DNA of 64,000 nucleotides from Candidatus Cloacimonadales bacterium (GTDB lineage: Bacteria; Cloacimonadota; Cloacimonadia; Cloacimonadales; JAFGVF01), in NCBI GenBank assembly GCA_963678315.1, contig OY782781.1:2880001-2944000 (forward strand), read 5' to 3'. Made by a program: the position numbers. The first letter of the stretch is position 1. Every line of letters begins with the position of its first letter. Below, in pieces: positions 24,001-27,000 of this stretch.

Positions 24001-27000
24001 TAGATCTTTTAATAGAATATATGACAGGTTCATTCTCAAGTGAAGCACAATCAGAAACATCAACAGACCCTTACCACGTAGATGTAAGATTGAAAATGGT
24101 AAGAATCTGGGATCATTTATCAACAGATAATGGCTACTGGATATATGTAGAGCAAGCTTATGCTGATCAATTAAGTTCTCCTTACAGACAACGTATTTAC
24201 AGAGTTTATGAAGAGAATGGTCAAATAGAAGATGAGATATATGCAATCCCAACACCATCTAGTTATGTTGGTTCATGGGAAACACCAGAAGATTTTGATG
24301 CAATCAGTCAAGATGATCTTACCCTTAAACCAGGTTGTGGCCTTGAGTTTAATTGGGACGGCGACCACTTCTCAGGTTCTACAAGCGGAACAGATTGTAC
24401 AGCTTCTATTCCTGGCGTATCATACATTACTTCAGAAACAACCCTCTTCCCTACTTATTTAACAAGTTGGGATTTAGGATACAATTCAGCTGGGACTATT
24501 GTTATGGGTCCTTATTCACCATATATCTTTGATAAAATCGAGAATTTCTAAATTTGAATATACGTCTTTCATCCTTAGTTCTCTTTATATTTTTGATTAG
24601 TATTTTATCAGCAGATACTGATCCATTAAGTCTTACTTTAATAGCAAGAAAGATGGACAGATACACTTTTAAAGTAACTAATCAAACAGACATGCGAGTT
24701 GATATAGAGAGAATTGAGGGTGGCTGAGGTTTTAAAGTTATTGATAAGTTTATCAAGCCAATATTACCTAAGCAAAGTCAAGAAGTAAATGTAACAATTC
24801 CACAAAGCACATTTTGCATCTGGGATTCTTTGATAATGAACTTTCATATTAAGGATATCCCTGATGTCTTCTCTATAGATTTAATTGCTGAAAAGCTAGT
24901 AGAAGTTCCTGAAACAATAATTAATTTGGATAGTAGAACTATCACAGCTTCAGAATCATTTGATTTAATAAAGTATTATAGTGATGAATTGATTATAATT
25001 GATTTGAGAGAAGCTGAATTATTTAAACAAGGATCGATTGATAAGGCTATAAACCTTAGTAAGAAGACTCTTATAAAACAAGCAGATACTAAATTAGATA
25101 AGTCAAAGCATTATCTTATATTTGGGGATAAACTAACTGAAAATGAGCTTTCAAAAATAAGTAAACATTCAAATAAATACTATTATATGAAGTCCTCTCT
25201 TGATGAATGGTATCTAGCTGCCATGAGATACTACGAAAGAGTGATTAAGTAAACTTATTCAAAATATATAAGGAAGTCCCTAGCAATAGAGACTTCCTCT
25301 TTAAATACAATTTATATTCTTAAGAACCTGCAATATCTACATTACATACTTTAATATATTTAGGTCCATAGTAAGATCCTTTTTGAATCATTTCTGAAGA
25401 AAAGTAAACTTCTGTCATAGCCTTGTCCATCATACCAGTTACTGAACCACCCTTTATTTGAAGCTTTTTTCCATCCTTAACTTGATAGCCAGATCTTATT
25501 TCTCCTGAGAAAGCACCAGTGATACCGCTCGGTGAGAAGGTGGAGAACCTTGATAAAACAAATGTGTTTTGACTTTTAAGCTCTTCAAAAGAATGATTAC
25601 CTGCAGGAACATGAATATTGCTAATGCTTCCTAAAGGCTTAATATTTAGATATGTTGCATACTGTATGTTAGCAGCAATATTAACTATCTTGCCATCTTG
25701 AATTATTGGGAATTTCTCTAATAGAAGTCCATAACTATCATACTTACCTGTAGCTAAGCCACCTTTCAAAGATGGATCAGAGATAATAGTTAACTTATCC
25801 CCTTTGACATCTTTAGCAATATGGTCATTCAAGGAGAATTTACCTGCTTTATTGTAAGCAGCATAACCTGAAGCTTGGAAAGCATAATAATCAAAGAATG
25901 AATTTAAAGCTTCTCCAGTGAAGATTACATCAAATTTACCACTCTCAGGTAATACAGCTATTAAGCTATTTCTTGCATGCTCTGCATATTCTTTTACTAG
26001 TTCACAAGTGTTCAAAAGGTCCAAGAACCTTTCATTTCTGATGAATGAACTTTCAACTTCATTTTCTCCTGAACCTGAAAGCATTACTGCTTCTAACATA
26101 ATATTTGTAGATTTATTATTGCTAGTTAAACCCTTAGAAGTAACAAAGGTGTTTTCTCTACAGGTAATGAATATTTCAGCAGAAGCAAGCTTAACTTGCT
26201 CTTCATTTGCTAAGCTAGTAATCAGTTGCTTAGATACTTCTTTGATAGCTGCTTTAGGGTTATCAAATACTGATTGGTCACAAGTATCATAGCATTCATC
26301 ATTTTCAGCTTTATCTGCTAGTGGATAGTATGGATTTAATGCTAAAGAAGCAGCAAAAACAGCATCTTTTATCAGAGATTCTACCTTTGCTAAGCTTGTA
26401 TTACTAGAGAAAGTCTGATAAGCCATTCCTCTCATTTTATTATCATTAAGCATCTTATCAACATAGACAATTACTGTATATCTTTCTTCATTAACTTCTC
26501 TTAGAGATTCTCTTGTGTCAGCAATGAAATATTCTTCAACACGTTTAATTATATTTTTAGAAATAGACCAATCTGAAATTCCATCTATTTCTTTTATTAA
26601 TTGTTTAATCTGATTTATCATTTGTAACTCCTTATTATGCTAATCTAGCTTTCAACTTCATAAAGGGACCACCATCAGATACTTTAACCCATTCTTTGTG
26701 GCCTTTACCACACATTCCACCACCAAAGAGTTCAATATCTTTGCCAATGCCAGTTATTGAGTTTAGAAGTTCAGGAACATAGCCTGTTACAATAACAGGT
26801 GTAAAGTAGTTATCAGTTAGCTTGCCATCTTTGATTTCTCTAGCATAGATTGCTTCTAATTGGATTCCCCAACCTTTAGGATCTTCCATACCATTTGTAG
26901 GATAATCAACTAAGAAACCATATTCTATGTCTTTTATCATATCTTCAAATGTATCATTTCCTGCTTCAAAGTAGGTGTTAGTCATTCTAGCATAGCTTTT

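Follow-up and report, generated by a model that had tools for sequence, protein, structure and literature searches.

The window analysed here is a 64,000-nt stretch of contig OY782781.1 of a Candidatus Cloacimonadales bacterium, and all positions below count along it. A database protein of 138 aa (P0002), annotated as a rhodanese, lies in this window behind an open frame that ends in TGA, and the question arises whether these are two genes or a single one in which the UGA is read as selenocysteine (Sec). Translation with table 11 splits the frame into ORFs of 57 aa (24554–24727) and 140 aa (24830–25252). When TGA was read as U, 24554–25252 of the forward strand gave 232 residues with a single U at residue 58 (TGA 24725–24727), and the database protein corresponded to residues 95–232 of this product. 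The preliminary description, which took the 138-aa call to be the tail of a TTG-started 232-aa gene, was confirmed in that a single frame with one TGA was found. On comparative sequence evidence it is very probable that 24554–25252 is one gene with UGA as Sec, and that its N-terminal domain is a branch of the DUF1573/OS_HP2 family. The annotation would then be corrected from a 138-aa "rhodanese" to the tail of a 232-aa exported selenoprotein (Table 1). Translation would begin at TTG 24554, and the UGA would be decoded as selenocysteine by SelA, SelB and tRNA-Sec under guidance of the hairpin that follows it.

Table 1. Positions of the features at the selenoprotein locus.
Feature	Position	Strand	Remarks
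Cassette gene 1	23388–23837	+	Small exported protein; FlgD-Ig-like domain and T9SS C-terminal sorting domain
Cassette gene 2	23847–24551	+	Exported CpeT/CpcT-family (DUF1001) protein, 234 aa, hydrophobic leader
Selenoprotein gene (predicted)	24554–25252	+	232 codons and TAA stop, TTG start, one in-frame UGA
Predicted signal peptide, residues 1–20	24554–24613	+	Basic n-region, hydrophobic core, L-S-A cleavage-type end
N-terminal β-sandwich, residues 22–112	24617–24889	+	Diverged domain of DUF1573/OS_HP2 type
UGA (predicted Sec58)	24725–24727	+	Same column in 6/6 orthologs; aligns to U of 10/12 DUF1573 relatives
SECIS-like element	24727–24769	+	Lower stem 24727–24730/24766–24769; upper hairpin 24741–24756
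Upper hairpin	24741–24746/24751–24756	+	6-bp stem; 4-nt loop 24747–24750 (A-G-U-U)
Cys88	24815–24817	+	Only invariant Cys (6/6), in two different codons
Rhodanese-like domain, Pfam residues 145–220	24986–25213	+	Catalytic Cys absent; Gly191 at 25124–25126
Intergenic hairpin, 13 pairs	25270–25299		Terminator-like site called on the minus strand, between convergent genes

Reading frame across the UGA codon

Full-length matches were obtained in six of 61 genomes, the own genome and five of the seven of the sister genus (41–52% identity), each with exactly one TGA in an open frame of 238–288 aa, in agreement with what had been reported earlier. These orthologs are close kin, all of them Cloacimonadales, and U occupied one column of their gapless alignment (6/6). 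The open frame was continuous through the UGA in the orthologs compared, with no frameshift and no second stop, and in all six the start codon is situated 57 codons 5′ of the TGA; no start codon 3′ of the TGA was conserved among them. The starts chosen by gene callers differ (M95, M86 or later), and four database fragments of 43–57 aa terminate precisely at the TGA. The pN/pS values of the six orthologs were 0.52 for codons 22–57, 0.32 for codons 59–94 and 0.43 for the remainder, the stretch between the TGA and the called start (codons 59–94) being the best conserved of the gene. The TGA was also retained in a contig from an independent DNA run of a different study. The motif R-I-E-G-G-U-G-I/F-K-V-I-D-K-F had been called invariant; only U-G-x-K-x-I-D-K-F-I is fixed, and the other positions vary, with E-G-G, E-G-S, K-G-G or D-G-G before the U, K for R once and I for V once.

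All six orthologs begin, by inspection, with a signal-peptide-like leader (M-K/N-x, about 14 hydrophobic residues, a small residue (A) and then an acidic residue), as previously proposed. A cleavable leader would take the 232-aa product out of the cytoplasm. The earlier statement that five of the seven selenoproteins of this organism are exported was only partly checked: four exported-looking candidates, including the present one, were seen, as was selD. Together with the three other exported Sec candidates, the protein suggests that an unusual share of selenium chemistry in Cloacimonadota takes place outside the cytoplasm.

The genome encodes tRNA-SeC, selA (487 bits), selB (325 bits) and selD (357 bits, with a TGA of its own), and selA was present in 12/12 genomes of the taxonomic family. 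An alternative genetic code was considered and rejected: TGA terminates 90 of 1222 long frames, and there are frames of thousands of codons without TGA. As a genome-wide control, 308 TGAs flanked on either side by 30 or more open codons were collected, 34 of which had a hairpin; since most of these 34 look like noise, a hairpin by itself is not diagnostic.

The TGA could alternatively be a true stop, so that a 57-aa exported peptide would be followed by a separate, cytoplasmic Cys-less rhodanese translated from a downstream ATG or TTG. Both table 11 and the gene callers give two ORFs, TGA is used as a stop codon here at the frequency given above, and the fold of the single hairpin sequence is not significant. 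This reading is highly improbable, given that the 36 codons from the TGA to the called start are in frame and show the lowest pN/pS of the gene, and that no downstream start is conserved. The stop would moreover cut the β-sandwich of the AF2 model midway, at a TGA whose column is the Sec/Cys position in a known selenoprotein family, and the SECIS position and loop G-U are conserved in 19 genes.

Equally concerned with the TGA is the view that the gene is a nonsense-mutated pseudogene in the course of being lost. It would suit the patchy distribution, the gene being absent from two of the seven sister-genus genomes and not found in 4/4 genomes of a third genus, and its position next to a defence island. 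The same TGA is nevertheless found in six species at 41–52% identity, the sequence before and after it is under purifying selection and has neither frameshift nor second stop, and in the genomes without the selenoprotein the whole cassette is missing with no decayed copies, which makes this explanation extremely improbable.

Searches of protein databases, genome contigs and metagenome contigs revealed no ortholog of this branch with Cys in place of the Sec. A search of 5.8 billion proteins matched only two C-terminal pieces and, in its "shorter" mode, nothing; the genome-contig scan recovered only the same five Cloacimonadales MAGs, and metagenome contigs gave no match, either by protein patterns or by a DNA pattern of UGA plus hairpin. 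Cys at the Sec column does exist at the level of the DUF1573 family, in L007 (C-G-C) and L046 (C).

The N-terminal domain and the hairpin following the UGA

The N-terminal domain had been described as faintly similar to OS_HP2, and the match to NCBIfam OS_HP2_seleno (E 0.016, 15.6 bits with a cut-off of 100, residues 37–82) was reproduced. Pfam DUF1573 (PF07610) scored 20.8 bits, below its cut-off of 26.1. Alignment by hhalign to 12 DUF1573 domains gave a probability of 92.3% (E 5.6e-7, 46 columns) with U on U, Sec58 falling on the leading C/U of the C/U-G-C motif of DUF1573. By this value the likeness represents real homology and is stronger than "faint". The motif is incomplete, U-G being retained and the third position being F, I or V in 6/6 orthologs. 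As judged from these alignments, the domain is a strongly diverged DUF1573/OS_HP2 branch in which the vicinal Cys was lost; Cys88 is a candidate resolving partner of Sec58.

OS_HP2 (pfam07610), for which the GOS table gives the motif UxC and counts 354 Cys homologs, goes back to a prediction in Olavius symbionts (PMC1976440). It has been listed as a predicted selenoprotein family since 2007, and DUF1573 "UGC" is listed as a predicted selenoprotein in reviews of 2022 and 2026 (the latter PMC13188914). The preliminary description was thus right on the family likeness and underestimated how known and widespread the parent family is. All 12 relatives scanned contain DUF1573 above the cut-off (99–191 bits), five of them together with Rhodanese, and DUF1573–rhodanese fusions are common in Cloacimonadota.

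In common with OS_HP2 (PF07610, NF041425), the present branch has an exported β-sandwich with Sec first in the C/U-G-C motif, Gly after the Sec and Pro 14 residues past it. Its hairpin falls on the six codons that bear it in OS_HP2, and the two share a stem of 6 bp and a loop of 4 nt with G-U at positions 2–3. Unlike OS_HP2, it falls below both curated cut-offs (20.8 versus 26.1 and 15.6 versus 100 bits), has F, I or V in place of the vicinal Cys, and has an invariant Cys elsewhere, 30 residues downstream. The stem is TTGATA/TATCAA here and CCAGTT/AACTGG in OS_HP2, with the loops AGUU and GGUC, respectively. The branch thus illustrates the drift of a selenoprotein family, in which the score fell below the cut-offs, the vicinal Cys was lost and the stem was entirely rewritten, while the Sec, the placement of the hairpin and G-U in its loop were kept.

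AF2 placed β-strands at residues 25–33, 36–43, 49–56, 75–81, 94–99 and 106–109, with pLDDT of 70–89 over most of residues 21–120, in a model that is mediocre as a whole (mean pLDDT 64.6, poor rhodanese part, below 50 at residues 85–91). Foldseek against the PDB returned PapD-, ASH- and appendage-type sandwiches, as well as CoA-disulfide/persulfide reductase–rhodanese chains; the DUF1573 profile, searched against PDB sequences, gave no match below E 0.15.

Two Cu(I) chaperones, 3zja (E 1.4e-3) and 6p16 (E 1.6e-3), rank among the ten best Foldseek matches, and a soft metal could plausibly bind at the C/U-x-C motif of the parent family. With the same gene structure, Sec58 could therefore be a ligand of a soft metal such as Cu(I) and the sandwich an envelope metallochaperone. 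This is unlikely: the second motif Cys was lost in this branch, the Foldseek matches are generic β-sandwiches of about 12–17% identity, and the recurrent partner domain is a rhodanese, a sulfur-handling fold. Furthermore, no copper or other metal gene was found within 8 kb on either side or among eight scanned neighbours at orthologous and related loci.

The hairpin (TTGATA/AGTT/TATCAA) begins 16 nt from the U, that is, 13 nt past the last base of the UGA, and not 15 nt after the UGA as stated previously. The hairpin of selD in the same genome likewise begins 16 nt from the U and has the loop GGU. Pairs of the type GGRR/YYCC had been proposed to enclose the upper stem; two G-C pairs of this lower stem are constant and are forced by Gly and Pro codons, and one more covaries in 5/6, whereas the remainder is not constant. 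Codons 63–67, which belong to the hairpin, are invariant at the nucleotide level in the six orthologs. Among 62 invariant degenerate columns a single codon was used in 15, and five of these 15 are the consecutive codons 63–67. For one sequence, the probability of exactly this hairpin codon set is about 0.017. The hairpin overlaps a conserved peptide stretch.

A gapless 54-nt alignment of 19 genes was built from the six of this branch and 13 DUF1573 relatives. In its upper stem, 6/6 pairs were changed on both sides and 97.4% of the cells pair, in a comparison that comprises essentially two clades, so that the stem may have been exchanged only once. For the whole structure, 88.4% of the cells pair, as compared with 20–45% when the partners are slid, and 19/19 genes have the loop bases G24 and U25. 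The hairpin lies at the codons where DUF1573 "UGC" selenoprotein genes from the phylum also have theirs. Folded alone, the sequence reaches −13.7 kcal/mol over 76 nt (z −1.17), which 27 of 200 shuffles equal; this fold is weak and not significant, for which reason the support for the hairpin is comparative only.

A conserved stem-loop shortly 3′ of the UGA with a G in the apical loop, as is characteristic of bacterial SECIS elements, is thus found at this site. The Cys-form relative L007 also retains the family hairpin, and hairpin retention alone is therefore no proof of Sec use. That Sec, the site of the hairpin and its loop G-U persist despite a rewritten stem provides a natural experiment on SelB recognition in the phylum.

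The rhodanese-like domain and a possible function

The C-terminal domain matched Pfam Rhodanese (PF00581) with 25.4 bits, above the cut-off of 22.2. A profile (A7) of the six ortholog rhodanese domains and those of six relatives matched solved rhodaneses with E values down to 1.5e-19. In this alignment Gly stands in the column of the catalytic Cys in 6/6 orthologs and the active-site loop is two residues shorter, in full agreement with the Cys-less domain described earlier; Cys is present in that column in L053, L054, L055 and P0013. By these sequence features the domain has the rhodanese fold but not the catalytic Cys, and it is not of the active sulfurtransferase type.

The nearest architecture is that of the DUF1573–rhodanese fusions of Cloacimonadota (L046, L053, L054, L055 and the Cys-form L007), which likewise have a leader, a DUF1573 domain with Sec and a C-terminal rhodanese; L007 and L046 also lack the rhodanese Cys. 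These fusions differ from the present protein in length (259–475 aa), in the full UGC, CGU or CGC motif and in their scores of 99–158 bits on PF07610, and in L053–L055 the rhodanese Cys is intact and one or two Ig-like domains are added. The rhodanese-family selenoproteins of forms 1–5 (PMC13188914) also combine a rhodanese fold and Sec in one polypeptide. There, the Sec is located in the rhodanese active-site loop (UxxS, UxxG, CxU), whereas here it is in the other domain, and both Sec and Cys are absent from the rhodanese loop.

A fold without the active Cys is shared with the inactive rhodanese domains of dual-specificity phosphatases, and A7 matched DUSP6 and CDC25 weakly. Inactive rhodanese homology domains can serve as docking modules. 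Those of phosphatases are eukaryotic and cytoplasmic, unlike the exported protein studied here.

Of the reactive motif residues only the Sec was kept, both the partner Cys and the rhodanese Cys having been lost, which points to the Sec as the indispensable centre of DUF1573–rhodanese proteins. By analogy, we tentatively favour Sec-based chalcogen exchange in the cell envelope as the function, rating it slightly short of an even chance. Sec58 would be the single reactive centre and would attack S–S, S–Se or sulfane-sulfur bonds to give a selenenylsulfide, which Cys88 or an external thiol could then resolve, and the dead rhodanese domain would only bind or dock a substrate or partner. The functional reading rests on family analogy, since no sulfur, selenium or thiol-redox genes were found nearby.

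The best experimental analogue for how the present protein may work is MccSep (ExtKL) of Geobacter. According to the reports on it (PMC13510729, PMC5877670), MccSep is a periplasmic selenoprotein with a signal peptide, its Sec is essential for polysulfide reduction, and it is encoded beside the rhodanese-like lipoprotein ExtH. It differs in being a cytochrome c with five hemes, in lacking a DUF1573 domain and in having its rhodanese partner encoded by a separate gene; no homology to it was found.

The surrounding cassette

The selenoprotein gene is preceded by two genes on the same strand (Table 1). The start of cassette gene 1 is uncertain (GTG 23346 or ATG 23388). Its product matched Pfam FlgD_ig (E 9.4e-12) and Por_Secre_tail (E 1.9e-10). 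A gene of 149–180 aa is found at its place in all five orthologous loci, and the one copy scanned (L003) has the same Pfam families.

Cassette gene 2 scored 120.5 bits (cut-off 21, E 9.6e-35) with Pfam CpeT (PF06206), and residues 49–234 of its product matched the phycocyanobilin lyase CpcT (PDB 4o4o) with E 2.3e-13. On this basis the product is a member of the CpcT/CpeT lyase-like family, lyase activity being a prediction only. Its TAA ends 2 nt before the selenoprotein start, the gap being 2 nt in five of the six loci, and no terminator-like site was found between cassette gene 2 and the selenoprotein gene. Close CpeT orthologs (77–81% identity) occur in all six genomes with the selenoprotein and in 0/6 other genomes of the family. 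The selenoprotein gene is co-inherited with the cassette genes and probably co-transcribed with them, as judged from this arrangement.

Lyases of the CpcT type link a bilin to a Cys of a protein through a thioether. The selenoprotein might hence be a dedicated substrate or partner of the lyase-like protein, receiving a ligand on Sec58 or Cys88, a reading in line with the strict co-occurrence (6/6 holders), the 2-nt stop-to-start gap and the match of the neighbour to CpcT. It is very unlikely, as the holders are not independent but kin, so that the co-occurrence may reflect one gain and a few losses, no such neighbour was found at the other DUF1573–rhodanese loci scanned, including those of the Cloacimonadota fusions, and the organism is a non-photosynthetic anaerobe. 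A more specific proposal, and a decidedly remote one, is that the two translationally coupled genes encode a dedicated pair, in which the barrel-shaped lyase homologue attaches or presents a small electrophilic ligand (a linear tetrapyrrole or another vinyl-bearing compound) to Sec58, giving a selenoether-linked envelope cofactor. If true, this would be a protein–ligand chemistry not known for selenocysteine.

Two RNA runs (X20 and X23) gave 0 reads and were thus no test of expression. From run X1, which is only presumed to be RNA, a single contig of 265 nt was obtained, and it lies on cassette gene 2 alone (23989–24253).

The locus is flanked by a BREX island and by a pmbA/tldD-like gene pair. 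No Rfam family was found at the hairpin following the UGA, and the weak Rfam matches were restricted to 25251–25367, on the intergenic hairpin. The latter (25270–25299) is likely the transcription end of both the cassette and the opposite pmbA/tldD-like pair.

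Gene model and distribution of the selenoprotein gene

Translation of the + strand with table 11 gave a 57-aa ORF with a TTG start (24554–24727), followed in the same frame by a 140-aa ORF (24830–25252). With TGA read as selenocysteine (U), both became a single frame of 232 residues with a lone U at residue 58 (Sec58), in agreement with the preliminary description of one gene running from the TTG through an in-frame UGA. The database protein at this locus, P0002 (138 aa), corresponds to residues 95–232 of the read-through frame. The start codon lies exactly 57 codons 5′ of the UGA in all six orthologs (hereafter, this branch), being TTG in Candidatus Cloacimonadales bacterium GCA_963678315.1 and GTG in the rest; the gene-caller starts 3′ of the TGA vary by genome (M95 in this genome, M86 or later elsewhere). 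A DNA-run contig from a different study spans the gene from end to end and shows 11 differences, all of them outside 24500–24896, which excludes an assembly error as the source of the TGA. The gene model is firmly supported.

A search of 61 related genomes returned full-length matches in this genome and in five of the seven genomes of the sister genus (41–52% identity), each with one TGA in an open frame of 238–288 aa, as had been claimed. The gene was absent from all four genomes representing the family's third genus, and a seventh genome matched through its rhodanese part alone (E 4e-4). The protein alignment of the six orthologs was gap-free, with 66 invariant columns out of 232 and, as previously described, U in a single column. 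The motif around it had been called invariant: U-G-x-K-x-I-D-K-F-I is indeed fixed, but the residues before U vary (E-G-G, E-G-S, K-G-G, D-G-G). Mean pN/pS over 15 pairs was 0.52 for codons 22–57, 0.32 for codons 59–94 and 0.43 for codons 95–232. Since codons 59–94 lie 3′ of the UGA yet 5′ of every called start, constraint is strongest in the very stretch left out of the annotated protein.

In a library of 1.8 billion representatives, 15 proteins were matched at E 0.001 or better, with no full-length or Cys-form ortholog of this branch among them. These 15 comprise C-terminal pieces as well as four N-terminal pieces of 43–57 aa terminating exactly at the TGA. Among 185,579 species representatives the branch was detected in the same five MAGs alone, and neither of two metagenome scans gave a match; as far as found, it is confined to two genera of Cloacimonadales.

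Features of the locus and of the selenocysteine machinery (positions in the window unless marked as contig positions)
Feature	Position	Strand	Remarks
BREX gene set	16002–23006	−	BrxA, BrxB, BrxC, Eco57I/N6-methylase (PglX-like); directly upstream of cassette
Cassette gene 1		+	First of three; small protein with T9SS sorting domain
Cassette gene 2		+	CpeT/CpcT-family protein, 234 aa, leader; PF06206 120.5 bits; PDB 4o4o CpcT E 2.3e-13
Selenoprotein gene	24554–25252	+	232 codons
Sec58 codon (UGA)	24725–24727	+	
SECIS hairpin	24741–24756	+	TTGATA / AGTT / TATCAA
Gly191 codon	25124–25126	+	Catalytic Cys column of rhodanese domain
13-pair hairpin	25270–25299		3′ of cassette
pmbA/tldD-like pair	25323–28017	−	Other flank of cassette
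tRNA-SeC	contig 2291151–2291245	complement	
selA			487 bits
selB			325 bits
selD	contig 725680–726606	−	One in-frame TGA, motif S-G-U-G-A-K
Candidate UxxC redoxin	34687–36186	−	499 codons, one TGA, motif G-S-P-G-U-S-G-C
Candidate CxxU protein	contig 490887 (outside window)	+	In-frame TGA, motif F-C-E-S-U-G-L; open codons 156 before, 653 after
Candidate selenoprotein	contig 579482 (outside window)	−	In-frame TGA, motif F-C-D-Y-G-U-A-P-P; open codons 231 before, 489 after

Domains and family assignment

The score of the NCBIfam model OS_HP2_seleno on residues 37–82 (E 0.016, 15.6 bits; cut-off 100) was exactly reproduced, and Pfam DUF1573 gave 20.8 bits on residues 34–82 (cut-off 26.1). Run against 201 genomes of the phylum Cloacimonadota, the OS_HP2 model matched 42 genomes at E 1e-8 or better (38–73 bits), no match exceeding the 100-bit cut-off; one TGA was present in the open frame of 41 of the 65 matches. 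Thirteen loci were translated, showing [GS]-U-G-C in eleven, C-G-U in one and C-G-C in one (L007), preceded in every case by a hydrophobic leader. In the family scan, from which L051 was left out as a near-duplicate of L050, DUF1573 was over its cut-off in all 12 loci (99–191 bits), five of which also carried a C-terminal Rhodanese domain. Profile-profile comparison of the six N-terminal domains with these 12 DUF1573 domains gave 92.3% probability (E 5.6e-7) and matched Sec58 to the motif's first C/U, with Gly opposite Gly and Pro72 opposite the family Pro. The likeness to OS_HP2, formerly described as faint, thus stems from common ancestry, and the wider family includes Cys forms; Sec58 occupies the reactive position of the DUF1573 family.

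OS_HP2 goes back to the Olavius study (PMC1976440), and a GOS table (PMC2398784) gives it as pfam07610, motif UxC, counting 2 Sec and 354 Cys sequences; lists of selenoproteins in the literature have included the parent family since 2007. The passages naming DUF1573 in three papers found by full-text search do not mention a rhodanese fusion. Many of the DUF1573 UGC selenoproteins (L044, L045, L047–L049, L052, from other Cloacimonadota genomes) are ~355–367 aa long and carry, besides the first, another DUF1573-like domain whose motif is H/Q-G-C. Paired OS_HP2 matches ~0.7 kb apart on one contig were seen in several genomes (e.g., G112, G150, G198, G116), and some matches without a stop cover only this additional domain, downstream of the TGA (e.g., L044, L049).

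Pfam Rhodanese matched residues 145–220 with 25.4 bits (cut-off 22.2). In an alignment of the six domains with five relatives' domains and another database protein, P0013, a Cys opens the active-site loop in L053, L054, L055 and P0013, Ser stands at the catalytic Cys column in L007 and L046, and Gly191 or its equivalent stands there in all six members of this branch, whose loop is two residues shorter. The absence of the catalytic Cys, noted previously, holds throughout the branch. The profile of this alignment, which includes the relatives' domains, matched solved rhodaneses down to E 1.5e-19, among them periplasmic PspE and a chain titled 'sulfide dehydrogenase' (1qxn). The C-terminal domain is a rhodanese fold incapable of forming a Cys persulfide.

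The AF2 model obtained from the six-sequence alignment (mean pLDDT 64.6, pTM 0.45) was poor in the rhodanese part. It contained a helix at residues 4–18, corresponding to the leader, and six strands between residues 25 and 109 (pLDDT mostly 70–89); the stretch bearing Cys88, the sole invariant Cys of this branch, had pLDDT <50. Foldseek matched Ig-like sandwiches (appendage, PapD/ASH/MSP, two PCuAC copper chaperones, FixG-related) at E 3e-5 to 5e-3, and also CoA-disulfide/persulfide reductase chains with a rhodanese domain. The region 24554–25252 is one gene coding for an exported two-domain protein.

SECIS hairpin and decoding of the UGA

The hairpin starts 13 nt after the UGA, that is 16 nt from U, and not 15 nt after the UGA as first described. 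Its single-sequence fold was unremarkable (z −1.17; 27 of 200 shuffles fold equally well), and the support for it is comparative. Its five codons (63–67) are nucleotide-identical in all six genes, pS elsewhere being ~0.6. One codon only is used in 15 of the 62 invariant degenerate columns, and five of these are the consecutive hairpin codons; the chance of this set in one sequence, calculated from codon use in the remainder of the genes, was ~0.017. As to the enclosing GGRR/YYCC pairs described earlier, one lower-stem pair covaries across the six genes (A-U twice, G-C twice, U-A once, one mismatch); the adjacent two G-C pairs are forced by Gly and Pro codons.

For comparison with the family, 54 nt from the first codon of the motif were aligned without gaps for 19 genes (six of this branch and 13 DUF1573 relatives). 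The relatives' hairpin, CCAGTT / GGTC / AACTGG, occupies the same codons as that of this branch. In the upper helix of the specified structure, 97.4% of cells pair and both sides have changed in all six pairs. The covariation score of the whole structure was 0.564, a value not reached by any of 500 shuffles (0.259), and with partners slid by 1–3 columns 20–45% of cells pair versus 88.4% unslid. Four of the six stem changes split just two clades and may represent one event; two further independent compensatory changes occurred within the DUF1573 relatives. All 19 genes share G and U at the second and third positions of the loop. The SECIS of E. coli fdhF has a GGUC loop, the G and U of which contact SelB. 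L007 (genome G012), a Cys-form C-G-C DUF1573-rhodanese protein, still has the family hairpin (CCAGCT/GGTC/AGCTGG), which may be a relic SECIS from before Sec gave way to Cys, or may simply follow from the conserved S-W-S peptide.

The genome contains tRNA-SeC, selA, selB and selD, and selA is present in all 12 genomes of the family. The selD gene, which encodes a selenoprotein too, has its hairpin at the same distance from U, with the loop GGU. Elsewhere in this genome TGA acts as a stop, ending 90 of 1222 frames of at least 300 codons. By almost every computational criterion the UGA at 24725–24727 reads as Sec; that it is a true stop, as at those 90 frame ends, or that the locus is a pseudogene, its constrained codons notwithstanding, is jointly very improbable.

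Gene neighbourhood and proposed chemistry of Sec58

The selenoprotein gene is the third and last of three same-strand genes, an order common to all five orthologous loci. The CpcT-like stop lies 2 nt 5′ of the selenoprotein start in five of six loci, and no terminator-like site was found between these two genes. With a BREX set directly upstream, the cassette borders a variable island. Close CpcT-like orthologs (77–81% identity) occur in exactly the six selenoprotein-holding genomes and were not found in the remaining six genomes of the family; because these genomes are kin, these are not six independent events. That the selenoprotein acts as the CpcT-like protein's partner or substrate is improbable. 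The small T9SS protein and the CpcT-like protein have a common N-terminal motif of the type I-x-x-x-D-G-S-x-x-E-I-x-I-x-x-I-E-x-I-x-F (within 23388–23460 and 23900–23990, +), which alone (query residues 1–47 to 1–106) also matched the N-termini of unrelated proteins of 244–431 aa, spread over five further genomes of this order.

Since evolution dropped the vicinal Cys as well as that of the rhodanese domain but kept Sec, Sec58 would be the single essential centre, a lone, exposed selenolate in the cell envelope. Exchange with S-S, S-Se or sulfane-sulfur bonds would be the most economical chemistry; the resulting selenenylsulfide could be resolved by Cys88, as a candidate, or by an outside thiol, and the dead rhodanese domain would serve as a binding or docking module. 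We propose such an exchange mechanism in general tentatively, at somewhat below an even chance. The parent family is repeatedly fused to active rhodanese, which points to sulfane-sulfur or polysulfide-type substrates, as does the precedent of Geobacter MccSep, an experimentally characterised periplasmic selenoprotein, encoded beside the rhodanese-like ExtH, for which reduction of polysulfide is described (PMC13510729, PMC5877670). A soft-metal site at Sec58, which the PCuAC matches could suggest, is unlikely. No sulfur, selenium, thiol-redox or copper gene was found within ~8 kb on either side.

Compared with the DUF1573/OS_HP2 family, this branch scores below the family cut-offs, has lost the second Cys of the motif and has a rewritten SECIS stem. 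It differs from the DUF1573-rhodanese relatives L053–L055 in the loss of the rhodanese Cys, and from the scanned DUF1573-rhodanese loci, whose scanned neighbours are unrelated to those of this cassette, in the acquisition of the CpcT-like partner gene. What is new here is thus a branch in two Cloacimonadales genera with a drifted domain, both Cys lost, a new SECIS stem and a CpcT-like partner.

Three further frames of this genome are candidates for exported selenoproteins. That at 34687–36186, a candidate UxxC redoxin, has an N-terminal leader, a T9SS sorting tail and a strong GC-rich hairpin 12 nt from U (8-bp stem, loop GGC). Both other frames likewise carry a leader peptide and a T9SS sorting tail; the candidate CxxU protein at contig position 490887 has in addition an Ig-like domain that scores for DUF1573, and the frame at contig position 579482 a hairpin 16 nt from U (7-bp stem, loop GGA).
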